A stretch of 39,505 bases of DNA from a virus (taxonomy: Duplodnaviria > Heunggongvirae > Uroviricota > Caudoviricetes). The notes under the pieces are model-generated. The model ran no database searches. It was not told the DNA's origin and saw only the letters and a list, made by a program, of their open reading frames with translations. The stretch is from IMG/VR virus record IMGVR_UViG_3300032257_000002, positions 64,001-103,505 of that record; one strand, written 5' to 3'. Below are positions 3,048 to 35,992 of this stretch, piece after piece; position 1 is the stretch's first letter; each line of letters starts with the position of its first letter. The position numbers were made by a program, and so were the translations under genes.

Positions 3048-3205
3048 AGTGAGGAAGATGGCGGAGGATCTTCTGCTAAAGTCTTCAGCACTGTGTAAAC
3101 TGCAAACAAAACTACAAGCCCTACCAATACCCAAAATGCTGCATAGGCTACAACAAGAATAAGTACAAATAACATAGCTTGAGCTAGATATGTCAAGTTC
3201 TGCAC
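3044..3205 (-). CDS. 53-aa hydrophobic membrane protein (not in the ORF track)
   Basis: GTG at 3205 (or ATG 10 codons later) to TAG at 3044; MLFVLILVVAYAAFWVLVGLVVLFAVYTVL is a long hydrophobic run; fills the gap between two genes. Confidence 0.6.
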   Translation of the reverse strand: MQNLTYLAQAMLFVLILVVAYAAFWVLVGLVVLFAVYTVLKTLAEDPPPSSSL

Positions 3206-3209
3206 AGTG

Positions 3210-3635
3210 CTATCGCTCGTCTAAGATAGACTGTAGCTGTTCTTCAGGACCTTCGAAATTAGCAGGCTTTGTAAGTTTGCCGTGTTCGTCTTTAGGCATC
3301 TGAAGTTTAGCTAGGTTCGCATGCATGACAACGTTCAGTGCTTTAGTAGCCTGCTGTGGTGTGAGACCTAGCTTGAATATGGATCCGAATGCAAAGACTA
3401 TTTTATCAAGTGCCTTATCCAGACGATCTACGTCTTTAAGATTATAGTCGTTGTTCTTCAGATCTTGAAGAAGTTCACGAGCAAAAGTCTTGGCATCATA
3501 GTTACCAAGCAAGTCTTCGTGACCTTCAAGGGACTCTTCAATAGTGAAGGTGTCTTCTAGGAAGTCGGAGTAACCGTTCTCTAAAAGACCTGCTTCCTTA
3601 TTAAAGCGGTAGATTTCCTTAATAGGATTAGTCAT
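3210..3635 (-). CDS. MazG-like / PRA-PH family nucleoside triphosphate pyrophosphohydrolase
   Basis: EESLE ... DKALDKIVFAFG ... VMHANLAK ... DEHGKLTKP pattern typical of phage MazG-like proteins. Confidence 0.8.
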   Translation of the reverse strand: MTNPIKEIYRFNKEAGLLENGYSDFLEDTFTIEESLEGHEDLLGNYDAKTFARELLQDLKNNDYNLKDVDRLDKALDKIVFAFGSIFKLGLTPQQATKALNVVMHANLAKLQMPKDEHGKLTKPANFEGPEEQLQSILDER

Positions 3636-4038
3636 TGGTTACCTTTCGTGTTGGTATACTGCAAGATTCCAGAAAGTAAATACCTTCAGGTTCTTTGTAT
3701 AGTTCGGAGTATACTACTTCTGTAATACCTGACTGAGCTATAAGCTTGGCACAAGTCTTGCAAGGTGAGTGTGTGATATAGAGAGTAGCACCTTTAGTAG
3801 GGATACCTTCTCTAGCACAATATGTGATAACATTCTGTTCTGCATGAAGGGTGAACTCTGAAGTAGAGCCATCATCGCACTCACAAGTATTCGGCATACC
3901 AGAGATAGTGCCGTTGTATCCGATGTTCAGAATACGGCCTTCTTTGGCAAGTACGGCACCTACCTGTTTGCGTTTACAGTAAGACTGCTTAGCAAATGTG
4001 TAGGCTGTCTGTATCATAGCAGAGTCATACTTTGTCAT
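3628..4038 (-). CDS. dCMP deaminase
   Basis: CKRKQVGAV, GYNG, HAEQN and SPCKTC Zn motifs; likely start ATG 4038. Confidence 0.92.
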   Translation of the reverse strand: MTKYDSAMIQTAYTFAKQSYCKRKQVGAVLAKEGRILNIGYNGTISGMPNTCECDDGSTSEFTLHAEQNVITYCAREGIPTKGATLYITHSPCKTCAKLIAQSGITEVVYSELYKEPEGIYFLESCSIPTRKVTND

Positions 4039-5401
4039 TAGAAAATACCCTTTCTGCAAATTCGGCGATGTTAGAGCGAAGTATTCTGGTAAGCGGAGTT
4101 ACATGTAGACTCACATCATTGTAGGCTTTAGTACATGCGTCTAGCAGGATAGCTAAGCCGTTGTTGTACTTGCTGATGTACGGATTATCGATCTGTCGAT
4201 TAGAGCCTATGAGGATAATCTTTGAATCTTTTCCGAAACGTGTAAGTACTTTCTGCATAGACGACTTCGACATGTTTTGACACTCATCGATGATAGCAAC
4301 CATGTTGTCAAGCGTACGACCTCGCATACCTAGTGTGGTAGTGGTCTGGATGTTATACTTGTCAGTAAGTTCTTCGATCTGCGACTCTATGAAGTCTTCG
4401 TATTCACGGCCTTTAAGTTTTGAATCTTTGAAACGTGAACGTGCAATGTGGTTCAGAACGTCGTATACAGGAGTGAAGAATGGAGCCGTTTTCTCCTCGT
4501 TACCGCTACGAAAGCCGTTCTCTTCAGCTCTCTCAGCGTCATCAACAGATGTACGGATGTATAAGATACCGCCATATTCTTTGCGTTTGACTAACTGGAT
4601 TGCGTTAGAAAAGGCTGTGAGAGTCTTTCCTGTTCCCGCTGCAGCATCACAAACAACAATATCTACATTAGAATTTTGGATTGCGCGGGATAGGAATAAC
4701 TGTTCAGCATTTCGTGGAGCAGCGTCTTGTCGACGTAGCTCAGCTTCGGTTTCTTTGCCAAGTATGTCGATACAGTTGCTTCGAAGGTTTGCTAGCTTGA
4801 CTTGTGCGGTGGTGGAGTCGATGAACTTGTAGTTATAGTTTTCAGGACGATGATCTGGGACTACCTGTGTAATCACAGAATTGTGGAGTGTGGCAAATAC
4901 ATCTGAAGAAACAGAAACTTCGCGAACAAACTCAATAGGGCGATCTTCAACGATCTTTAAGTCAGTAACTTTAAGGCCGAAAGCTAGTGCACGTTTGTTA
5001 CACATAACATCGTTAGTCATAAAAGTTACGTCAAGACCTAGATTTGTGTAGTCTTGAGCAATTTGGATGATACGGCGATCATTGACAATGCTAACATCTA
5101 CGTTGCCGTAGTCTGGATAGTCACTGCGTGAGACTGTCTCTATTCGTACACCGTCTAAGTCACTAGGTATAACAGTGAGTTTCGCTGTACGTTCTATCGG
5201 TAGGTTAGTGGCTCGGGTTAAAATACGCCCCAGCTCACGGACTTGGAATTTAATTTCCGGATTAGTAGACGTCTTCTTACCATCGACTTCATCGAGAACC
5301 GTCTCAGGTAGAACTAATATGTAGTTCTGTCCTAAGGTACGGATGTTTTCAGCGTCGATGAGAAGGATATTAGTGTCTACAACTAAGTAGGGTTTTTTCA
5401 T
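4025..5401 (-). CDS. phoH: PIN-domain PhoH family ATPase (PhoH2-like)
   Basis: N-terminal VVDTNILL PIN motif and NDRRI; Walker A AAAGTGKT, IIDECQN, IGSNRQID. Confidence 0.88.
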   Translation of the reverse strand: MKKPYLVVDTNILLIDAENIRTLGQNYILVLPETVLDEVDGKKTSTNPEIKFQVRELGRILTRATNLPIERTAKLTVIPSDLDGVRIETVSRSDYPDYGNVDVSIVNDRRIIQIAQDYTNLGLDVTFMTNDVMCNKRALAFGLKVTDLKIVEDRPIEFVREVSVSSDVFATLHNSVITQVVPDHRPENYNYKFIDSTTAQVKLANLRSNCIDILGKETEAELRRQDAAPRNAEQLFLSRAIQNSNVDIVVCDAAAGTGKTLTAFSNAIQLVKRKEYGGILYIRTSVDDAERAEENGFRSGNEEKTAPFFTPVYDVLNHIARSRFKDSKLKGREYEDFIESQIEELTDKYNIQTTTTLGMRGRTLDNMVAIIDECQNMSKSSMQKVLTRFGKDSKIILIGSNRQIDNPYISKYNNGLAILLDACTKAYNDVSLHVTPLTRILRSNIAEFAERVFSNDKV

Positions 5402-11059: not shown

Positions 11060-11626
11060 TTAGTGTTTAACGAACTGCGGAGTCTGAGTAGCTGCCTGCG
11101 AAGTCCAGCAGTAATCGCAGTCGATCCCGCATTGTTTTGTCTTGTCAAGTGTAGATGGGCAGATAAATCGTGACGGATCTAGATTAGCTAGTTTGTCGTA
11201 ATTCAGTCCACCGGATTGCAGTGAGTCGATGAGTGTGAAGTTCGGAAGGGCTTGTAAACTAGTGAAGTCAAAGTCTTTCAGTCGTTTTGTAAAGGCGTAG
11301 AACTTAATAGATGGTAATGTGCTGGCTATTGCTGTCCATGACTCTATGTATGACTGCGAATAAAATTCTCCAGAAGCATGAAGTCGGATTGCTTTAAATG
11401 GTTTTCTAATAGCTTTTATTTCTTTTACCATATTAGGTATAAAATCAGTTTGTTTGGACGCCTCATACCGCGCGTTTCTTGCCGGTATTACTGAAGTAGG
11501 AAATCGTTTTTGTTCACGTAGGCTGTAGCACCCGGGACACTCTCTTCCACATACTTCTTTTGATGTGATAATATTAAACATATATTGGTTATGTAGTTTC
11601 TGGTTTCCTGGTTGTAGTAGTTTCAT
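11060..11626 (-). CDS. Gp88-like protein with CxxxCxxC motif (radical-SAM-like)
   Basis: VCGRECPGCY, IRLHASGEFYS, FYAFTK; start lies inside the endonuclease 3-prime end with its own AGGA RBS. Confidence 0.75.
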   Translation of the reverse strand: MKLLQPGNQKLHNQYMFNIITSKEVCGRECPGCYSLREQKRFPTSVIPARNARYEASKQTDFIPNMVKEIKAIRKPFKAIRLHASGEFYSQSYIESWTAIASTLPSIKFYAFTKRLKDFDFTSLQALPNFTLIDSLQSGGLNYDKLANLDPSRFICPSTLDKTKQCGIDCDYCWTSQAATQTPQFVKH

Positions 11627-12317
11627 TGTCTAATCCTAGTATGTCTATTATAAAGAGTTCGGTATTACCACTTGAAAGTAAGGCAGGACCTTGGTATTTA
11701 TACTCTTTGTATTGCCGCAATATCCGAGTCTCCTCTTCCAGTGCACCTAATCCTTCTGTGTATTTCCAGACTTTAAGGATTGTTATTGTTTTCAAATCGG
11801 CTACTAGAAATCTTTCCTCCACAGAACGATTAGTTATACCTATCTTGTAAGCTTGTCCGTTATTGATTGATATATAGTATAAGTATCCAGGTAGTTGTGT
11901 TTTAAACCCACCATCATACAGTTGACACTTTCCGCATCCATGCCCTTTTAAATGGTGATTTGGGGTTTGTGTAAACTTTCCATGTTCTGGGCAGACAATA
12001 GTAATTTTTGTGTGAATGTTTTTATATACCACATTACTATAATTATACTTATTTTTATGTGTTATGGAGGCAGTTTCTATAAAGTCTTCTTGAGCGGTAG
12101 AAAATTTAGCGGCCAGTTTATCATACTGACATTGTCGACAGCCTCTTCCTTTATTCTGTAAGTGGTTATTAGGGGTTTGTTGAAATTCCCCATGAGTAGG
12201 GCAAGTAATTACTACTTTTGTGCGATTATTTTTATAGACTGTGTTATTATAGGTATAAAAATTATTATGTAGTAGTTGGGCTTCTTTTATAAATTCTGCT
12301 GTTGTTTTCTTTTTCAT
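11589..12317 (-). CDS. Free-standing putative homing endonuclease (CxxC repeats plus T5orf172/GIY-YIG-like C-terminus)
   Basis: Two ITCPxHG.F.QTP..HL..GC..C repeats; YLYYI..YKIGIT..R..GNTELF. Confidence 0.8.
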   Translation of the reverse strand: MKKKTTAEFIKEAQLLHNNFYTYNNTVYKNNRTKVVITCPTHGEFQQTPNNHLQNKGRGCRQCQYDKLAAKFSTAQEDFIETASITHKNKYNYSNVVYKNIHTKITIVCPEHGKFTQTPNHHLKGHGCGKCQLYDGGFKTQLPGYLYYISINNGQAYKIGITNRSVEERFLVADLKTITILKVWKYTEGLGALEEETRILRQYKEYKYQGPALLSSGNTELFIIDILGLDNETTTTRKPETT

Positions 12318-12362: not shown

Positions 12363-12452
12363 TTAACTGCATACAGCTTTGCCTGCTGGGATAGAGAAGA
12401 TTAGCTGGTGTTTAAGTTTGCCGTTTTCGTATTTCAGTAGTTTTTCAGTCAT
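12363..12452 (-). pseudogene. Stranded original N-terminus of the Gp88-like gene (MTEKLLKYENGKLKHQLIFSIPAGKAVCS*)
   Basis: 12/25 identical, ungapped, to the N-terminus of 11060..11626; starts by ATGA overlap with the upstream gene. Confidence 0.85.
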
Positions 12453-27670: not shown

Positions 27671-29620
27671 GTAGTGTTTCTCCAATTTAAAATAATGAGA
27701 TAGTGTAGATACAGAATCATTACGTAATGTGTATAATAACGGATACTTTTTCTCAATATTTGTAAAATTGTAAGTGTACGTAGGTTCTTTACATGTGATA
27801 CCGAATAACGAATCTAATGTACTGACTATTCTCGCGTCTAATACTGCTTGTTTATAGTTATGTAGCGGACGTTCCTGTACAGCAGTATTTAAATCATCAG
27901 GTATGTTCGAGACGTTTTGCAATACGCGATGTAGGTTATAACTATTATAATCTCCGTGCACTGAACTATCAGTATAATCTGGTCTAATGTTAAAAGTAAT
28001 AGTATTGCTGGTTAATATTTTTTTCAAGTAGTCTATAGCTAAATGTGCTTTAGGTAGCTGTTCTGCAATACTAATGTACTTTTGCTGAATTCCGTAAATC
28101 TGTGGGATAGAGATACCTAGTGTTTGTGATAGATAATTTCTTAGAGATACTATAGCTTCTCGTTCATCGTAAGTGAGTTCATAAGTTGAGCCTTTTAACG
28201 GACAGTAAAGTATTTCTTCTGTGTTTGTAGCTAGGTCGTAGTCGTACGCAGAGTAAGCTGAGCTACCAAAATTTTTTAGTGGTATAGTACCAACTGTTAG
28301 TCGGGATTGTTTTTCAGGTTTTTCGAAGTCAGATACTTTCTTGTAATCGGTAATACCTAAATACTGTAAGTAGCTTTCGATCTTTGGCGTAGTTATAGTA
28401 AAGTCATCTTTTGTTAACGTATTAGGAGCGATAAAAACTGCAGAAGTACTAGAGTACTGTTTTACGACATGACTATACTGTCTTTGATCAACAATGATAA
28501 AATCAGCTTCTTTGACATCGGAAAATGATGCGCGACGATCAGTGATTTTAAAAGTTTTTTGATAATAGTTAGTTTTTAGTGAGAATACAAAATCAGGATG
28601 AGACCATCTTATATAGTTGTCAATAACTAGTGTACCTTTAGTAATAGACGGATGCGCAAGCTGTGGTCTTAATGCATATGGTACTTTGTCCCATAAAGAA
28701 CTAAATAGCAATAATTGTTTAAAAAGTGTGGGTTCTTTTTTAATAGATAGGTTTGCGCGATTAATTATAATAGTTTCTACGTTTTTTATAAAATCTACAA
28801 GAAATGCTACGGTCGGTTTATCGTAAGTTAGTGATTCTCTACCTGGAGTAATTGAAATTGAACCTAAAGGTACACGAAGCACTAGGTTATCGTAGTTAGA
28901 TCTAATCTGGTATTGGTCTAAAGAATAAACAACATTTCCCATTAGAACTACGTTACTTTGATGGTGAGTAGAATCTAAAAGATAAAAATCTTGATGTTCG
29001 ATAAGTGTGCTAAGTTTTGGTAGTTCCGTATTGATTATAGGTTTATGGTCAAAATACTTATAAAGGTTCTTTGCTTTTTCATGGAAAGTAGGGATGTCTT
29101 CTGCTTGTACAGGAAGTGATAATCGTAAGCCGTTAGGTTCAGAAGTAGGTGTAGTGCCTAGTGACATACTGACTGGTAGATCATCTTTTAAAGATATCAG
29201 GTAAGTGATCTTCATACCGTTGTAGAACGATTCAACAGTGAAGTTTGATGCGTAAGCTAAAGCTGACATACGTCCGATACCGAAAGTACCGTTGTATTCA
29301 TTAGAATCTCGTTTAGTAGAGGCTCCGAATGTGCAGAATAGTCCAGTGATATCTTTTTCTGCTAAGCCTGTTCCATAGTCGCGTACAGAAAACTGTGCGT
29401 TGGAAGTAGTAGGTAAATGAACTTCGAACTTCGGTGTATGGCCGGCTTCTAGACAAGCATCAATGGCGTTTGTCGACCATTCTCGAATACTGGCTAAGAT
29501 AGTATCATTATATACGTTTGTAGTTAACATTTTAAACATGGAAGCGTTTACTTCAATACTAAAATCAGTAGTATTTATATCTGTTGTTGTAATATAGGAA
29601 TTTGTAGTTGATTGTTTCAT
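27647..29620 (-). CDS. rIIA: RIIA-like protein with GHKL/HSP90 ATPase domain
   Basis: VYNDTILASIREWSTNAIDA, VRDYGTGL, STKRDSN, GTFGIG, ISITPGRESLTY. Confidence 0.85.
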   Translation of the reverse strand: MKQSTTNSYITTTDINTTDFSIEVNASMFKMLTTNVYNDTILASIREWSTNAIDACLEAGHTPKFEVHLPTTSNAQFSVRDYGTGLAEKDITGLFCTFGASTKRDSNEYNGTFGIGRMSALAYASNFTVESFYNGMKITYLISLKDDLPVSMSLGTTPTSEPNGLRLSLPVQAEDIPTFHEKAKNLYKYFDHKPIINTELPKLSTLIEHQDFYLLDSTHHQSNVVLMGNVVYSLDQYQIRSNYDNLVLRVPLGSISITPGRESLTYDKPTVAFLVDFIKNVETIIINRANLSIKKEPTLFKQLLLFSSLWDKVPYALRPQLAHPSITKGTLVIDNYIRWSHPDFVFSLKTNYYQKTFKITDRRASFSDVKEADFIIVDQRQYSHVVKQYSSTSAVFIAPNTLTKDDFTITTPKIESYLQYLGITDYKKVSDFEKPEKQSRLTVGTIPLKNFGSSAYSAYDYDLATNTEEILYCPLKGSTYELTYDEREAIVSLRNYLSQTLGISIPQIYGIQQKYISIAEQLPKAHLAIDYLKKILTSNTITFNIRPDYTDSSVHGDYNSYNLHRVLQNVSNIPDDLNTAVQERPLHNYKQAVLDARIVSTLDSLFGITCKEPTYTYNFTNIEKKYPLLYTLRNDSVSTLSHYFKLEKHYHDTYSSG

Positions 29621-30336
29621 TCATGATCCTTTAAAGTTTTTAAAATTATTTCTTTATTTTTAATAGCATAACATTCTTGTTTTCCATGAAATTGTAGTTT
29701 TGGTAAATATTTATATTGATGATAGCTATTATGAAACGTTTGCTCTAATTCACATATATATCTTGGTGACCCTTCAATTATTTGAAGAACTTTCCATTGA
29801 TACGCCATATTGTATTTTCCATTGAAACGACGTTCTAACGTGTTAAATGTTTTACCTATTTTAAGAAAACGTTCTTCTTCATTCCAGCACTCAATTATAT
29901 AGACTTTGTAACCGTTTTTCTCTTTTCCTTGTTCAATCCAATCGGAGTAACGCCATCCTCCATGTGTTTTACAGTGTGGGCATCCAGCTCCTCTTTTATG
30001 ATCTGCTGGTCTTTGTTCAAAATATGACTCGCAGTTATTACAAAAAATTGTTACTTTTGCCTGGTTTGTTTGATATACAGTATTACTGTAATCATATTTA
30101 TCACCATGACAAATTTGAGCTTTAGAGATAAACTCGTTTGCTGCTTTAAGTTTATTTTGTTCTGCTACTTGTTTTGCAGAGCATGATGAACATGCAGCAT
30201 TTGGATTTTGTTTATGCTGTTCTGATCTAATTTCTTTTTCTATACCGCAACTATTACATTTACATAGGTAGTAACGTCTTGTTCGTTTAGAATTGCTATT
30301 AATTAAGCGTGTTCCTAAGTCTTTAATAAAAATCAT
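29617..30336 (-). CDS. Free-standing putative homing endonuclease, same CxxC / T5orf172-like family
   Basis: HGDKYDYS...C..C...F.Q...H..G.GCP.C; VYIIE..LKIGKT..R..ECY; likely start ATG 30336. Confidence 0.78.
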   Translation of the reverse strand: MIFIKDLGTRLINSNSKRTRRYYLCKCNSCGIEKEIRSEQHKQNPNAACSSCSAKQVAEQNKLKAANEFISKAQICHGDKYDYSNTVYQTNQAKVTIFCNNCESYFEQRPADHKRGAGCPHCKTHGGWRYSDWIEQGKEKNGYKVYIIECWNEEERFLKIGKTFNTLERRFNGKYNMAYQWKVLQIIEGSPRYICELEQTFHNSYHQYKYLPKLQFHGKQECYAIKNKEIILKTLKDHE

Positions 30337-30363
30337 AAGCACCTTTTTGAGTTAATTAGTTTT

Positions 30364-30401: not shown

Positions 30402-30659
30402 CTATATAAACAATTCTGGGTGTGATTGTTTTGTAGGTAGCTCGTTGAATGCACCTGCAATTAAGTAATGTCTACCTGCAGCCCATTTTGACATAGTATC
30501 TAAAGAAATAGTACGAGGAAAGTTCCAGCTACCTATATAATCAAAAGGAAGTGATAAACATTCAGTAATGGCATCACTCCAATCTATAGAAGATTGATGA
30601 GATTCAGGGCACATTAGTATAAACTCATTATCCCATTGATCTTGTATTAAGTAATACAT
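30402..30659 (-). CDS. MYYLI-family protein, tag HPELFI
   Basis: Paralog of 31253..31510. Confidence 0.82.
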   Translation of the reverse strand: MYYLIQDQWDNEFILMCPESHQSSIDWSDAITECLSLPFDYIGSWNFPRTISLDTMSKWAAGRHYLIAGAFNELPTKQSHPELFI

Positions 30660-30667
30660 GAAATATC

Positions 30668-30970
30668 CTAAATTAGTAGTTCTGGGAATTTTGTTAAGAA
30701 GTCAGATGGATGTTCGGCTTTAGCGAGATGAATTGTTTGTATGTATAGATCGCTGTTGCTTCTTAATGCTTTACAATATTCTTCAATCGTAGAGAAATCA
30801 TGCATAACAATGGTTCCATCGTCATCATCAGGTGCTTCGCAACCTTCAATAGCAGTATGGACGATTTCTTGTAGTGATCCCCATTGACCATTTCCATGCC
30901 AGCAGTTTTTGATGTCGTCAATAATTGCAAATGAATCCCGAGCTTCTTGGTCAGTGATAAGATGGTACAT
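30668..30970 (-). CDS. MYHLI-family protein, tag FPELLI
   Basis: AAGGA RBS, terminal tag. Confidence 0.8.
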   Translation of the reverse strand: MYHLITDQEARDSFAIIDDIKNCWHGNGQWGSLQEIVHTAIEGCEAPDDDDGTIVMHDFSTIEEYCKALRSNSDLYIQTIHLAKAEHPSDFLTKFPELLI

Positions 30971-30979
30971 AAAATTCCT

Positions 30980-31243
30980 TTAAATAAATAATTCTGGATA
31001 AGATGTTTTAAACCAAGCTAAATCACGATCTTGGAATTCAGAGATAAGTGGAGTAATAAGTTGTCTAAAGTTTAATTCGTATACTTCACGAGTACGACTT
31101 TCAGATAAAGTTTCACAGGCTCTACTTGCTGGGCAATTATCACATACTCCGGTAGTCGAACATTCTGCGTAATCAGCTAAATCTGTAACATGTCCTTGTT
31201 CCACTGCTTGTAAAAAATTGATGTACATAGTTATAGGGTGCAT
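30980..31243 (-). CDS. Four-Cys hypothetical protein, tag YPELFI
   Basis: CSTTGVCDNCPASRAC. Confidence 0.8.
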   Translation of the reverse strand: MHPITMYINFLQAVEQGHVTDLADYAECSTTGVCDNCPASRACETLSESRTREVYELNFRQLITPLISEFQDRDLAWFKTSYPELFI

Positions 31244-31252
31244 AGGTGTCCT

Positions 31253-31510
31253 TTAAATAAATAATTCTGGGTGAGACTGTTTTGTAGGTAACTCGTCGTA
31301 AGTACTAATAAGTTTCCAGTCATATCCTTCGGCCCATTCACGCATTCCTGATTCAGATTGATCATCAGGGTAAGTCCATTCGTGAGCACCATCTGTCACT
31401 AAGTTAAAACATTTTGAAATACTGTTATACCAGTCATACGATGACCTGTTATTTTTAGGGTTTACAATAATATAATCAAAATTAATAGGGTCGTAAATGA
31501 GATAATACAT
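31253..31510 (-). CDS. MYYLI-family protein, tag HPELFI
   Basis: Paralog of 30402..30659. Confidence 0.82.
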   Translation of the reverse strand: MYYLIYDPINFDYIIVNPKNNRSSYDWYNSISKCFNLVTDGAHEWTYPDDQSESGMREWAEGYDWKLISTYDELPTKQSHPELFI

Positions 31511-31518
31511 AGAAATAC

Positions 31519-33771
31519 TTAAAATAAACGAGCTATCTGATTTTGCATTGCTTCTGAGCGAACTTCTTCGAATGGTACATCCCAGTATTCTTGAATATCT
31601 GCGTAGAGTGATTTAGCGTCTTCCAAAGAACCGCCGAGCTCACGAAGATGGTACATAGCTCGTATAACATTACGAGATGCAGAACCCCATGGGGCTTCAA
31701 ATGCGTAGTTGAACGTAGTGAGTGGATCTTTCAATTGTGCTGATTTTTGAGCAGAGGTAAATGTCTGATCTTTGTGCTTTTTATCGGCTTCCAGTTCTTT
31801 GGCACGAATGAGATAAGGACGAGCTTCCAATGGAGAAGCATCTAGGTTGGAAATAACTGGACGATCGGCATAGCTAAAGAATATTTGAGATTGAGGTAGT
31901 GGATCTACTCTGAGCGCCAAGTCTTCTGCTATACCTAGATAGAAGTGCTTCCAAGCAATCGGTGAAAGTTCGACGGTAGAGTCTAGCTCGATGAGTACTC
32001 GGAACTTGTACTCGTTGTCAGGATCACTAGATAAGGCGATATGATGGTTTATGTCGGATAGCATGAAGTGAGCTTCAGATGCTGTAATAGGTGAATCATC
32101 TATGTCTAAGACTACCCACTTGGTTCCACCAAGAATGTTTTCTTTACCGCGAACTCCGTTACGGAATTTAAACGGTGAATAAGCATAGTCACCTTCTAAT
32201 AGGTTTGAGAGATCGTTGAAAGTAGTATCGTTGACATCAAAGCCATATGCGGTAGTGACAGAGATATCATGTTTAGCAGTTCTTACAGCTTCAGAATCAC
32301 CATTAGTGATAGCAATGTTAAGTCGTGTACAATCAATGGGTTTAAATGATATGCCCACAACTTCAGTTTTAATAATCGGTTCATATTGTAATGCACCTCC
32401 TTCGTTGATTATTGAGTAAATACCAGAGGTATCGTAGCCGGAAGCTAGGTGAACTAGTTCTTGCAGCTTTCCATGGGATACTGAGGTTACGTAGTTGTTT
32501 TTCTTTAGGTCATATACAGATATAACTGCTTTGCCGTTTTCTTGTACTTGAGTTTTCATAAAATCTGCAAAATGTTCATAAGGCGATTTACTAATTTCGG
32601 TTTCGAAGTTGTGTATATCATCAGATAGCATCTCAATAAATTGCATAGCTTGTTCGTAGTGATGTTTCTGTATACTAGAAGCTTTCTCTATGAAGGCAAA
32701 TGTAGAAGATAGTTTTAAAGCACGCCACTGATTGTGTAAACGTACAAGAGAACTTAGAGAATCGGGATTGGTTGACTGAGCTACGTAATCTTTATTATAT
32801 CTTCGGTAAAGTTTGAATAATTGATCTACTTCAGTACTAACTGGTAAAGGTGTGTTAGCGTGAGTAATCCCATATTTAGCAACATCAATAAAGTAGTCTT
32901 CTATTAATTCTCTTGCTTTTGCGGCTTTATCATCTTGGACTTCTTCATATTCTAGTAGTAATAGGGGATCGTTGCTGAAATCAGGTTCAGGTAAAACTTC
33001 GTTGTTGAAGTATATTATAGATCTACGAGCTAGTTTAGAAGCTAGTGCATTTATAAATTTATGCCTAACTGCTTCATTGTACATAAGAATATTATAGCTA
33101 CCCATTAAAAGAGCGTTAGTAGGTACACCTGTTAGCTTTTTAGATCGGAATTCAGAACCTTTTGTGTTTTTAGCTGGTATATCCCCTAGATCATAAGAGA
33201 TTGCTAATGCTTTAATCAACTCGTCTGTGTCCTTGTTGCTGGAGAATTCATCACTCATTTCTGAGGTTACGACTAAAGGGGCTCCTAGAGGCGCTGTCAT
33301 GATTTCTTCTGCCAAGGCTACAAAACCTGGAGCAGTAGTAAATGCTGTCTCATAAGTAGGACAGTATTTGCGGTAGTTGTTATACACTTCAGGTACACTA
33401 GGTAATTCCTCACCAGCTTTCTGTGCTTCTTCTATAGCTTTTTGAACCAAGGTATCTTCTACATGGGCATCGATAATTTTGTAAGCTTTAGCAAATGCTT
33501 TAGAAGCCATCTTGTAAGAGGAGTCTTTACCTACTCCTGAACCGGCGGCAATCACCGTGATAGCGTTAGTAGGGCAGATGGTGCCGTCTTTGAGTTCTGC
33601 AGATCGTCTGAACTGTGAGGCAAAAGTGGTTAATACGCTTACTGCAATTGTGTATTTCATACGGTCAGGCACGTTAATTACAATAGTGTCTGAAATTTGT
33701 TTAATTAGGTCGTTAGCCTTTGGGTTAAGAGCTTGGCCTAAAGTTTGCGTTAGCGAATTTAGCATTGACAT
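31519..33771 (-). CDS. N4 gp43-like primase: N-terminal P-loop domain plus C-terminal AEP primase domain
   Basis: AGSGVGKDS Walker A; WVVLDIDD and HIALSS...KFRV AEP-type motifs; start inside the endonuclease 3-prime end with an AAGGA RBS. Confidence 0.75.
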   Translation of the reverse strand: MSMLNSLTQTLGQALNPKANDLIKQISDTIVINVPDRMKYTIAVSVLTTFASQFRRSAELKDGTICPTNAITVIAAGSGVGKDSSYKMASKAFAKAYKIIDAHVEDTLVQKAIEEAQKAGEELPSVPEVYNNYRKYCPTYETAFTTAPGFVALAEEIMTAPLGAPLVVTSEMSDEFSSNKDTDELIKALAISYDLGDIPAKNTKGSEFRSKKLTGVPTNALLMGSYNILMYNEAVRHKFINALASKLARRSIIYFNNEVLPEPDFSNDPLLLLEYEEVQDDKAAKARELIEDYFIDVAKYGITHANTPLPVSTEVDQLFKLYRRYNKDYVAQSTNPDSLSSLVRLHNQWRALKLSSTFAFIEKASSIQKHHYEQAMQFIEMLSDDIHNFETEISKSPYEHFADFMKTQVQENGKAVISVYDLKKNNYVTSVSHGKLQELVHLASGYDTSGIYSIINEGGALQYEPIIKTEVVGISFKPIDCTRLNIAITNGDSEAVRTAKHDISVTTAYGFDVNDTTFNDLSNLLEGDYAYSPFKFRNGVRGKENILGGTKWVVLDIDDSPITASEAHFMLSDINHHIALSSDPDNEYKFRVLIELDSTVELSPIAWKHFYLGIAEDLALRVDPLPQSQIFFSYADRPVISNLDASPLEARPYLIRAKELEADKKHKDQTFTSAQKSAQLKDPLTTFNYAFEAPWGSASRNVIRAMYHLRELGGSLEDAKSLYADIQEYWDVPFEEVRSEAMQNQIARLF

Positions 33772-34669
33772 TAAAGTCCTTTATAATTAAATTTAAAATG
33801 TTTCTAGAAAATAGTTCAGTATTGCCGGACGAAAGTAACGGATCTCCTGTATACTTATAGTTGCTATATTTTTTAAGTATACTTTGCTCCATTTGATAAG
33901 CTGTAGAAGCTGCCGGAAAATCCCATAAATATAGTATGTTAATACTAGTAAGTTCTTTTACTAAGAATCTTTCGTTCACAGTTCGGTTAGTAATACCTAT
34001 TTTGTATGCTTCTCCGTTATTAATAGATAAATAATACAATATAGCCGGTTTAGTTAAATTAAAGCCGTGTAAAGCACAATGCGGACAGCCACGGGTTCTT
34101 AGTAAATTATCAGGAGTAGTCTTGAAAGTACCTCCACATTTATGGCGTACTTCAATCTTAGTTCTTGCAGTAACGTAGTTTCCTACTACAGTATAGTCAG
34201 TACCCAATTTTTTAGAAAAGTTTTTAGCTGCTTGTACTTGTTTATCTTTATTTGTCTGTATTAGTTTTTGCACTGAACACACTTTGCAAGTTTTAGCTTT
34301 TAGATGGTTAATAGGTATTACAAGGGATACAGTTGCACAGCTGTTATGTTTTATTACTACTGGTGTTAAAGCATTTTTATAAACTACTTTAGCGTAGTCA
34401 AAAGCATCACCATGTATAGCTTTAGCCTCAGTAACAAATTCTTCCGTAGTTTTAGTTCTACTATCAGGCGTATCTTTGGAACAATGGGGGCATCCCTGTT
34501 TTCCAGATAAGTGATTATTAGGTTTCATAGCAAAAACACCGTGCTGTCTGCAAGTAATTTTTACTTTTGTATGACTAGTTGTATACACGGTATTTTCGTA
34601 AGTGTACATGTTATTATGTACTGCATTGGCTTTAGTTTTGAATTCTTCAGTAGTTAATCGTATAGGCAT
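33725..34669 (-). CDS. Free-standing putative homing endonuclease, paralog of 11589..12317
   Basis: Three CxxC repeats; LYYLSINNGEAYKIGITNRT..ERF..LLSSGNTELF nearly matches the 11589 ORF. Confidence 0.8.
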   Translation of the reverse strand: MPIRLTTEEFKTKANAVHNNMYTYENTVYTTSHTKVKITCRQHGVFAMKPNNHLSGKQGCPHCSKDTPDSRTKTTEEFVTEAKAIHGDAFDYAKVVYKNALTPVVIKHNSCATVSLVIPINHLKAKTCKVCSVQKLIQTNKDKQVQAAKNFSKKLGTDYTVVGNYVTARTKIEVRHKCGGTFKTTPDNLLRTRGCPHCALHGFNLTKPAILYYLSINNGEAYKIGITNRTVNERFLVKELTSINILYLWDFPAASTAYQMEQSILKKYSNYKYTGDPLLSSGNTELFSRNILNLIIKDFNVNAKFANANFRPSS

Positions 34670-34695
34670 ATAAGCTCTTCTTGTTTATTTCCTAT

Positions 34696-34718
34696 ACTAT
34701 AGCATATAAAGACTTAAA
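34696..34718 (-). promoter_or_regulatory. TTTAAG-N11-TATAGT promoter
   Basis: 27 nt upstream of ATG 34669; its TAA is also the stop of the stranded fragment. Confidence 0.65.
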
Positions 34719-34821
34719 GTACACTGATTGCTGTAACAATCTGTTTTACATGACCGTTAAGTGATGGGGTCAAAGCATTGTGTGTATCTAGTTCTTTTTT
34801 ACAGATTTCTAGCATTGTCAT
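34714..34821 (-). pseudogene. Stranded original N-terminus of the primase (MTMLEICKKELDTHNALTPSLNGHVKQIVTAISVL*)
   Basis: 12 identities to primase residues 1-32 with one 2-aa gap; AGGA RBS at the normal operon position. Confidence 0.78.
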
Positions 34822-34830
34822 TTTGTGTCC

Positions 34831-35097
34831 TTAGATAAAGTATTCTGGATATTTAAGTTTAAGCTCTTCGAAGTTTGAGATATTAAGTGGAGTACAGGTA
34901 GTAATAGTATCACCACCATCTGTTTTCATCTTATCAGGAAGAAAAGTAGTGTTATTGGCCATATTTTTAGTTAGTTGGTATAGAGCTGTTTCTGCGGTCT
35001 CGCACCATGGTCCGGCATTAAAACCTTTAAGTATTTTAAAATCAGAATTAGCTACTGCGTAGTGGAATTCCATCTCACGTTTTAACAAGTAGTACAT
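34831..35097 (-). CDS. MYYLL-family protein, tag YPEYFI
   Basis: AAGGA RBS, terminal tag. Confidence 0.8.
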   Translation of the reverse strand: MYYLLKREMEFHYAVANSDFKILKGFNAGPWCETAETALYQLTKNMANNTTFLPDKMKTDGGDTITTCTPLNISNFEELKLKYPEYFI

Positions 35098-35105
35098 TAC
35101 AGTCC

Positions 35106-35483
35106 TTATATAAATAGTTCAGGATTGTTCTTTTTAAAATCAGAAGTATTGAAGTGAGCGTCGTGCAGTACTCCATCTGTATCGATATATTGGAATGAAA
35201 TCACTTCGATGTCATGTAGTCCGTATCCTGAGCTAGGGATATAATCCCATAAACATTCTGTAATATCATCAGATAAATTTACAGAGTTACGATCGGATAG
35301 CTCACCCCAGCCTTTGATGTCTCCATTAAATAAGTAGTAAAAAGCGAGTACGTTGTCTTCTAGTTCGGCTAAGGTGACAGTAGAAGATTGTTCAGTATAG
35401 TCGCCGTCATTAGTATCACCTTCGACAGTTAATAGATAGACATCTTTTTCAGTAATAGGTGTGTGAGTAACAAATTTTGACAT
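35106..35483 (-). CDS. Conserved phage protein (GDTNDGDY motif), tag NPELFI
   Basis: AAGGA RBS, terminal tag. Confidence 0.8.
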   Translation of the reverse strand: MSKFVTHTPITEKDVYLLTVEGDTNDGDYTEQSSTVTLAELEDNVLAFYYLFNGDIKGWGELSDRNSVNLSDDITECLWDYIPSSGYGLHDIEVISFQYIDTDGVLHDAHFNTSDFKKNNPELFI

Positions 35484-35492
35484 GTAATTCCT

Positions 35493-35708
35493 TTAAATTG
35501 TATATTCTGGATGTATTTTAGCGATTTTATCATATATGTGCTGTGCTTCTTCTTTAGTATTAAAATATGTTAATTCGTTTAGCTGTTCAAAACCTATATC
35601 GTCCATAGCAGTATCCCAATTGATAATTTCGCCAGTTGTTAAAATGTACATATCGTCAGTAATAGCAATAAAATACTTATCAAATGTGGATAACTTAATA
35701 ATTCTCAT
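35493..35708 (-). CDS. Hypothetical protein, tag HPEYTI
   Basis: RBS, terminal tag. Confidence 0.78.
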   Translation of the reverse strand: MRIIKLSTFDKYFIAITDDMYILTTGEIINWDTAMDDIGFEQLNELTYFNTKEEAQHIYDKIAKIHPEYTI

Positions 35709-35716
35709 AATAGCCC

Positions 35717-35992
35717 TTAGATTAGTAATTCTGGATAGCGGTTAAATAGTTGTTTTGCGGATGAGATATCAGTACCATCAATAGATAAGATTACAGGATG
35801 TTTATGAAACTCGTCGTGTAAGCAACCGTAGGTAATACACATTGCACGAGATGGCTGTTCAGAGGTATTCCAAGCGCTCTCAAAATAGCAACAAAATGCT
35901 TCATGCATATTATCGCCTGCTGTTATAGCGGCCATACCATTGTCGTTGAAAATAAGAAAATAGTGATGGTACCATTTAACTAGATGTAACAT
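35717..35992 (-). CDS. Hypothetical protein, tag YPELLI
   Basis: AAGGA RBS, terminal tag. Confidence 0.8.
   Translation of the reverse strand: MLHLVKWYHHYFLIFNDNGMAAITAGDNMHEAFCCYFESAWNTSEQPSRAMCITYGCLHDEFHKHPVILSIDGTDISSAKQLFNRYPELLI

Follow-up and report, generated by a model that had tools for sequence, protein, structure and literature searches.

The stretch of DNA examined here, referred to as the window, consists of 39,505 nucleotides from a marine virus of the Caudoviricetes and corresponds to bases 64001-103505 of a 103.5-kb IMG/VR record (IMGVR_UViG_3300032257_000002) that has direct terminal repeats. The nearest cultured relatives of this virus are the Alteromonas phages vB_AmaP_AD45-P1 to P4. 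On the minus strand of the window, an N4 gp43-like DNA primase gene is preceded, and overlapped at its start, by a free-standing gene for a predicted homing endonuclease, and upstream of the latter lies a 35-aa open reading frame (ORF), hereafter the stub, that reads as the beginning of a second primase. In endonuclease-free relatives the primase starts immediately after the upstream gene, and the 'N4 gp43-like' primase of AD45-P1, which is 45% identical to the window primase over its full length, has no endonuclease upstream; in the window, it is the stub that holds the operon position of the primase ribosome-binding site (RBS). The locus had been described in an earlier note drawn up from the sequence, and all coordinates in that description hold on re-reading, including those of an operon RBS ahead of the 35-aa ORF and of a working primase ATG and RBS located inside the endonuclease ORF. 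In the order in which they are read, the features are the following.

34831-35097, minus strand: upstream 88-aa gene with C-terminus PEYFI, whose TAA stop (34831-34833) overlaps the AAGGA preceding the stub
34828-34832, minus strand: stub RBS AAGGA, 6 nt 5' of the stub ATG, at the original operon position of the primase start
34714-34821, minus strand: stub ORF of 35 aa, consisting of primase codons 1-33 followed by V-L-stop, with its TAA at 34714-34716
34670-34713, minus strand: 44-nt spacer from the stub stop to the endonuclease ATG, carrying the palindrome CTATAGTATAG
33725-34669, minus strand: free-standing, predicted homing-endonuclease gene of 314 aa, with Zn-finger repeats and a T5orf172/MUG113-like core
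33777-33781, minus strand: working-primase RBS AAGGA, within the endonuclease ORF
33676-33771, minus strand: first 32 codons of the working primase, lacking two codons that the family has; a candidate 5' replacement tract of donor origin
31519-33771, minus strand: working N4 gp43-like primase of 750 aa, with its ATG 47 nt inside the endonuclease ORF

Comparison with the primase family confirms the 35-aa ORF as a genuine, canonical primase N-terminus that has been displaced. The 12 identities with the primase start to which the earlier note had drawn attention fall within 34 aligned positions, residue 1 to residue 1 (BLASTP E=0.006, in one comparison). For a broader assessment, 120 primase homologs with 43-58% identity were collected, and a profile made from the first 34 residues of 115 other primases, with the window's own protein left out, was searched against the 1882 six-frame ORFs (at least 25 aa) of the whole genome. 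This search recovered the stub at 57.6 bits (E=1e-16), with the next ORF at E=0.5, while the N-terminus of the working primase scored 18.5 bits against the same profile. The family homology of the stub stops at 'AIS', right after the conserved 'A-I-(P/S)', and the working N-terminus is a diverged version of the family sequence with a two-residue deletion. Among relatives, P0003 comes nearest in the primase body (58% identity), and its N-terminus shares 62% identity with the stub and 44% with the working start. Stub and working start are only 35% identical to each other, so that the remnant lies nearer to relatives than to its working counterpart in this genome.

The primase downstream of the endonuclease is nonetheless complete. 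It matches PHROG 2135 'DNA primase' (3.7e-93, residues 18-743), aligns with the family from residue 1 and shows 100% coverage against the AD45-P1 primase, its best homolog standing at 58% identity. A Megablast search with the region against 50,697 phage records returned no match. The module TATAAAGGA...ATGTCAATG at the working-primase RBS is found unchanged in front of the endonuclease-linked primase of another locus, L033, described below.

The upstream enzyme matches PHROG 681 'endonuclease' at 7e-57. Its N-terminus carries treble-clef Zn fingers of the PF14311 (DUF4379) type, with 25.3 bits against a cut-off of 24.5, and repeated CxxC modules are seen in an alignment of its paralogs. Its C-terminal 121 aa score below cut-off for both T5orf172 (PF10544, 17.3 bits against 20) and MUG113 (PF13455, 17.0 bits against 22.3, with 20.3 for a paralog), and no PDB relative was found by sequence. 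The Y...YKIG...R...E...N core residues expected of T5orf172/MUG113 enzymes, which belong to the GIY-YIG superfamily, are nevertheless present, and Y212, Y222, K223, I224, G225, I226, T227, R229, E233, R234, N283 and E285 are invariant in three paralogs, suggesting that the protein is a T5orf172/MUG113-like homing endonuclease. The conserved core ends at NTELFSRNILNL ('NTELF..IL.L'), and the last ~20 codons read through the primase RBS and start in another frame. The enzyme had been called a close paralog of the one encoded at 11589-12317; the two are indeed paralogs and fall in the same PHROG, but at 48% identity their relationship is only moderately close. Relatives located upstream of Gp88 genes carry PF05265 (DUF723).

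The earlier note had also placed the stub's TAA within an endonuclease promoter. The stop codon lies where it was said to lie, but a consensus scan of the 44-nt spacer on the endonuclease strand found no sigma-70-like site, and the spacer motif TATAGTATAGG is no commoner in the window than in shuffles. The palindrome CTATAGTATAG (34691-34703), upstream of the endonuclease ATG, is likewise not enriched genome-wide, and loosely similar TAGTATA/TATAG strings occur in the spacers of the other stub-bearing units of this genome and in those of L033, L178 and L179. The palindrome could be a phage-polymerase promoter or an operator, and the endonuclease would presumably be expressed from the spacer.

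The arrangement at the primase recurs within the genome, which encodes four related endonucleases. Three of the four paralogs, all belonging to one subfamily, share the stub layout; they are located upstream of the primase, of Gp88 and, outside the window, of a DUF2201/VWA metallopeptidase gene, as listed here together with the fourth endonuclease.

Primase unit: 35-aa stub, 44-nt spacer, 47-nt overlap of endonuclease and target gene
Gp88 unit, minus strand: 29-aa stub (12363-12452), 45-nt spacer, 38-nt overlap
11589-12317, minus strand: Gp88-unit endonuclease of 242 aa, whose ORF extends 38 nt into Gp88
11060-11626, minus strand: working Gp88 (PF17338 family)
Metallopeptidase unit, outside the window: 29-aa stub, 41-nt spacer, 40-nt overlap; G000:C1 stub 3985-4074, endonuclease 3203-3943, gene start 3242 (= locus L262 1404-2275)
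29617-30342, minus strand: fourth endonuclease, of another subfamily ('KIGKT' core), ATGA-coupled to a downstream 657-aa gene

In the metallopeptidase unit, a paralogous endonuclease of 246 aa precedes a DUF2201/VWA gene of 410 aa, and the stub fits the family start 'MSETT...PLSR..LD.ALAN'; the 12-nt GCACTAGCTAAC occurs unchanged in both stub and working start, immediately ahead of the junction. The Gp88 stub of the window is ATGA-coupled to an upstream 107-aa gene and is identical at 22 of 25 positions to the N-termini of P0134, P0135 and P0174, which represent another Gp88 clade, compared with 12 of 25 for the start of the working Gp88. No recognisable stub lies upstream of the fourth endonuclease (29617-30342), relatives of which are located at the primase start in the loci L033/L191 and L193.

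Metagenome contigs provided Gp88 relatives of closer identity and, with them, the filled and empty alleles that the earlier note had proposed to compare. L180 and L181 are empty alleles, with Gp88 ATGA-coupled to the upstream gene, while the filled L178 has a DUF723 endonuclease that is separated by a spacer from a 28-aa stub and followed by a working Gp88. Along Gp88, L178 and L180 share 16 and 14 identical bases in the first two 30-nt windows and 26-30 in every later one, so that about 60 nt of the L178 5' end are foreign and the remainder is ~94% identical to the empty allele. The L178 stub, in turn, matches the start of the empty allele at 27/30 and 23/30 positions, against 16/30 for its own working start, in agreement with what had been anticipated for a replaced 5' end. 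A further locus, L179, contains the endonuclease but no stub. The L178 and L179 endonucleases are ~68% identical, yet the two loci share 77 of 80 nt over the endonuclease 3' end and the first ~50 nt of Gp88, and it follows that this tract travels with the endonuclease. The 77/80 island (L178 1024-1103) spans the endonuclease 3' end, the RBS and the Gp88 start, and could reflect dual coding, recent conversion or a functional site. The comparison of L178 and L179 also indicates that the stop codon of the L178 stub is apparently taken from the very end of the gene upstream in the donor, which suggests a non-homologous left junction at first origin.

Primase loci were sampled more widely by alignment-based scans that gathered 160 of them, 80 from viral contigs and 80 from metagenome contigs; an IMG/VR scan with a single primase query had yielded four loci, all distant. 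An other-subfamily endonuclease interrupts the primase of L033/L191 behind codon 4, leaving the 12 bases ATGAGTATGTTA as a stub that is ATGA-coupled to the upstream gene, as the primase is in four empty relatives, and the working primase restarts behind a new AAAGGA RBS with ATGTCAATGTTA. In L193, an other-subfamily endonuclease, similar to that at 29617-30342, overlaps the primase start, and the contig begins inside the endonuclease. In L068/L261, a remnant of a window-type endonuclease immediately precedes the primase start and no stub is present; the endonuclease's N- and C-terminal pieces are kept and its middle is deleted (L068 3640-3966, = L261), as would befit the loss phase of a homing cycle. 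The N-terminal profile was also searched against 1.84 billion protein representatives, where it retrieved six short proteins: the stub itself, two from frameshift-ridden or very low-coverage contigs, and three that look, by their sequence only, like primase N-termini cut at contig ends.

Taken together, these observations make it fairly probable that the primase locus bears the footprint left when a free-standing endonuclease gene homed. In a carrier phage, the endonuclease gene would have been located directly upstream of the primase start, with its ORF running into the primase RBS and first codons. Upon mixed infection, the endonuclease would cut an endonuclease-free primase allele some 25-35 codons into the gene, and the break would be repaired from the carrier genome. 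On the right side, homologous recombination inside the primase would copy the carrier RBS and first ~31 codons, while the left side would be joined at or near the break, with the recipient's RBS, ATG and codons 1-33 left ahead of the endonuclease as a defunct 35-aa stub. Such a repair, copying the endonuclease together with a variable length of adjoining target, would amount to classical co-conversion, and the diverged replacement 5' end would presumably destroy the cut site and render the carrier immune. The DNA itself encodes an uninterrupted primase, which makes an intron, intein or bypass unnecessary. In the primase case we infer the parentage of each side, and the sequence comparisons favour a native stub and an imported working start, since the identities and best matches of the stub follow the closest relatives of the primase body better. 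The N-termini of the nearest relatives are 29-44% identical to the working start and 53-62% identical to the stub; the ten best matches of the stub rank 1, 3, 15, 23, 30, 45, 6, 2, 7 and 19 in body similarity, those of the working N-terminus 1, 37, 53, 19, 24, 35, 30, 34, 52 and 55, and the similarity profiles of stub and working N-terminus correlate with that of the body's relatives with Spearman coefficients of 0.56 and 0.34.

A number of observations weigh against this account. In a regression of N-terminal on body identity, the working N-terminus does not stand out from what its body would predict (z=-1.24) and the stub is, if anything, more canonical than expected (z=+2.33), and a sliding BLOSUM window indicates that the whole primase is divergent, and not its start alone. 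The data searched hold no endonuclease-free primase allele above 58% identity, no high-identity island is seen at the primase start between the window and L068 or L033, unlike in L178/L179, and neither the 160 related loci nor the profile search of 1.84 billion proteins revealed another long primase stub. Moreover, stub length varies among related loci (0, 4, 27 or 33 codons), which fits accidental left junctions equally well, and in the window the entire working Gp88, instead of its first ~30 codons, seems to go with the endonuclease. The nearest relative of this Gp88, L177 (81% nucleotide identity), lacks both endonuclease and stub, passes straight from window position 12449 to 11626, and has a working-type start whose first 26 residues are identical to those of the window; since L177 has the working-type start and the stub comes from another clade, the whole gene would belong with the endonuclease and the stub would mark the end of DNA from another lineage. 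The 5' replacement put forward in the earlier note is thus upheld insofar as the stub is a real displaced primase end and L178 fits it when set against L180/L181, but it is tempered at the primase by the absence of a close empty allele and by a working start that is no outlier. For these same two reasons, the opposite polarity keeps a minor share of probability at the primase. Under it, the whole working primase would be native to the endonuclease lineage and nothing would have been replaced, the stub being either the terminal part of a patch acquired from a different phage, which had been cut near codon 33 and joined at its left end upstream of the endonuclease, or a left flank retained from an earlier host. 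The window Gp88 has this appearance, for its stub shares 88% identity with N-termini from a clade that reaches only 56-58% in the gene body, and identity to L177 falls from 81-84% to 68% to the left of the junction. At the primase, however, the stub tracks the relatives of the body better than the working start does, its 62% identity to P0003 matches the 58% of the body, and the L178/L180 pair proves that 5'-only replacement occurs in this endonuclease family.

That endonuclease-driven repair overwrites a 5' end and leaves a stub is therefore partly supported, and a fixed cassette is not established. It is conceivable, though doubtful, that stub, stop, spacer, endonuclease, RBS and substitute 5' codons form a self-contained mobile cassette that homes precisely into the coding sequence of core phage genes, the stub serving as a left homology arm refreshed from each recipient and the substitute 5' tract as the immunity determinant. 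Such refreshing would explain why a dead ORF has stayed intact and canonical, and a stub in the donor would offer homology right at the break, so that the arrangement could propagate as a unit. The converse proposition, that each stub is a one-off scar of illegitimate end-joining after cleavage, neither inherited with the endonuclease nor involved in homing, is also a minority view. It draws on the variable length of the stubs, their absence in L179 and L068 and from the rest of the 160 primase loci at this length, a donor tract that ranges from 60 nt to a whole gene, and the L178 stub's stop, whose apparent origin in the donor's upstream gene is as expected of a non-homologous join. It is less easily reconciled with the presence of stubs at near-identical spacing in 3/3 same-subfamily endonucleases of one genome, with stubs that are intact ORFs free of frameshifts, or with the Gp88 stubs of the window and L178, which end within one codon of each other despite the divergence of their endonucleases. 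The earlier note's idea of a repeatable insertion near codon 30 fares accordingly: the layout does repeat in three genes, but the varying stub length means that 'near codon 30' is no fixed rule. Tandem duplication of the primase 5' end upon endonuclease insertion, followed by divergence, would account for two copies that are collinear from residue 1, but is very improbable: in-place duplication is excluded because the stub groups with the primases of other phages (up to 62% identity) rather than with the adjacent working copy (35%), conservation is better in the non-functional copy, and in L033 the second codon of the two copies, although serine in both, differs at three bases (AGT and TCA). 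Next to no weight is given to a joining of stub and primase at the RNA or protein level, through a group I or II intron, an intein or bypass, or to a leader peptide function of the 35-aa ORF, even if this ORF is intact and has a good RBS from which it would be translated. A group I or II intron is dismissed because no Rfam family was detected in 31000-35500 at E up to 1, and an intein because the endonuclease and primase frames differ and are not fused; neither layout is seen, with 44 nt between stub and endonuclease and an overlap, rather than a spacer, behind the latter. Joining would, in addition, duplicate an N-terminus that is already complete, and relatives have no such small ORF. Intron, intein, bypass, leader peptide and in-place duplication were thus rejected, the last on the grounds of the stub's outside kinship, and the claim of an invasion without intron or intein, which the earlier note had made dependent on finding no sign of RNA- or protein-level joining, agrees with the results.

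Further observations concern the primase in other loci. Two unrelated metagenome contigs (L015 1-30 and L016 1-30) start exactly at primase codon 33, the endpoint of stub homology, which hints at assembly breaks where filled and empty alleles converge. An HNH-type endonuclease splits the primase in L036 (2246-5758), L074, L202, L214, L216 and L260, and in P0077, P0121 and P0368, into ORFs of ~174 and ~570 aa, with ~11 conserved residues missing at the break and no duplication; in L074, this endonuclease is on the opposite strand. A different insertion of ~1 kb lies near primase residue 120 in L030/L213, so that the primase emerges as a hot spot, invaded by endonucleases of several kinds.

The earlier note's suggestion that upstream fragments matching the downstream gene be sought across the endonuclease family was followed in a survey of 77 related endonuclease loci, which was noisy, with tandem endonucleases among the loci and related loci in the null, and which provides leads only. 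In L132 (1957-3792) and L112 (1626-3967), both viral contigs, genes for related Zn-finger endonucleases have beside them a second, diverged copy of the C-terminal portion of the gene upstream (44 aa and ~36% identity in L132), which is the 3'-end version of the layout and resembles the mitochondrial mobile ORFs (mORFs) discussed below. Near-exact direct repeats of 30-45 nt bracket related endonuclease genes in L150 (1783-1827 / 3513-3557), L156, L138 and L159, one of these genes being in a giant-virus contig. Most of the small genes surrounding the locus (at 30402-31510, 34831-35992 and many other positions of the window) share a C-terminal peptide [Y/H]-P-E-x-x-I, which also ends the upstream genes at Gp88 and primase junctions in relatives.

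If the primase locus is indeed a homing footprint, a selfish nuclease gene can seize the start of a core replication gene without either breaking it or resorting to splicing machinery. Short ORFs upstream of phage endonuclease genes may consequently be dead gene starts, not to be annotated as genes, and the first 20-35 codons of endonuclease-linked genes can differ in ancestry from the rest and distort phylogenies. Stubs would also show where diverged phages have recombined and indicate the nuclease cut site, making target prediction testable. Should the cassette interpretation prove true, it would add a further general route by which homing endonucleases settle inside essential genes, beside introns, inteins and the gene 60 bypass, and one that would be common in marine N4-like phages.

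The literature searched yielded no account of 5' stubs beside endonuclease genes of phages. The closest parallel is provided by fungal mitochondrial mORF elements, known from atp6 of Allomyces macrogynus, atp6, atp9, cox2 and nad3 of Glomus, atp9 of Rhizopus and cox2 of Mortierella, in which a foreign C-terminal gene end arrives together with an endonuclease ORF and the native one persists downstream (PMC3630166); C-terminal duplications of atp6 and cob have also been described (PMC6279837). On the homing interpretation, both settings have in common that a protein gene is invaded close to one of its ends by a free-standing endonuclease ORF, that the diverged substitute end stays contiguous with the gene body, that the native end survives beyond the ORF as a remnant more similar to relatives than to the genome's own working copy, and that several genes per genome are hit. 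The phage elements differ in that it would be the 5' end that is replaced, so that the element must supply an RBS and start codon while the remnant keeps the old ones, and in that the host is a bacteriophage, the enzyme is of the Zn-finger/T5orf172 type instead of LAGLIDADG or classical GIY-YIG, and the endonuclease is not fused in frame to its target. The homing interpretation would hence extend to bacteriophages, and to gene 5' ends, a mechanism known for fungal mitochondrial 3' ends.

Among phages, the free-standing endonucleases of T-even phages spread by double-strand-break repair and drag flanking donor sequence into the recipient. The window locus resembles these systems in having a free-standing endonuclease gene between conserved genes, a presumable origin in break repair and the co-transfer of donor flank. 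We know of no target-gene stub described for SegF, SegG or MobE. These three enzymes are cases of intronless homing with marker co-conversion, a subject on which PMC12724721 refers to Belle et al. 2002. At the window locus, on the other hand, the endonuclease abuts and overlaps the start of its target, and the recipient 5' end is retained. A further parallel lies in T4 mobA and the 50-nt bypass of gene 60, which Bonocora et al. are said to have termed a 'mobile DNA cassette' in 2011. There, as in the window, an endonuclease travels with adjacent sequence that spares an essential gene and removes the cut site, with no intron or intein involved, but the T4 system splits the gene and relies on ribosomal bypass, whereas here the gene remains in one piece by virtue of a substitute 5' end. 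The mobA/gene 60 cassette is discussed in bioRxiv 10.1101/2022.08.31.505936. Lastly, PMC10448857 describes T5orf172 homing endonucleases with CapR/DUF723/DUF4379-type Zn fingers at recombination boundaries in ICP1 and other phages, an architecture that it reports for ICP1, T5-like and Vibrio phages. The window enzymes share with these their domain architecture, their presence in several copies per genome and their location near replication or core genes, bordering exchanged DNA; the passages of that source dealing with fragments, duplication and truncation contain no target-gene stub. On these analogies, the mechanism proposed for the primase locus is not new in kind, and is best regarded as a mirror image of the mORF elements and an elaboration of the intronless homing of T-even phages.

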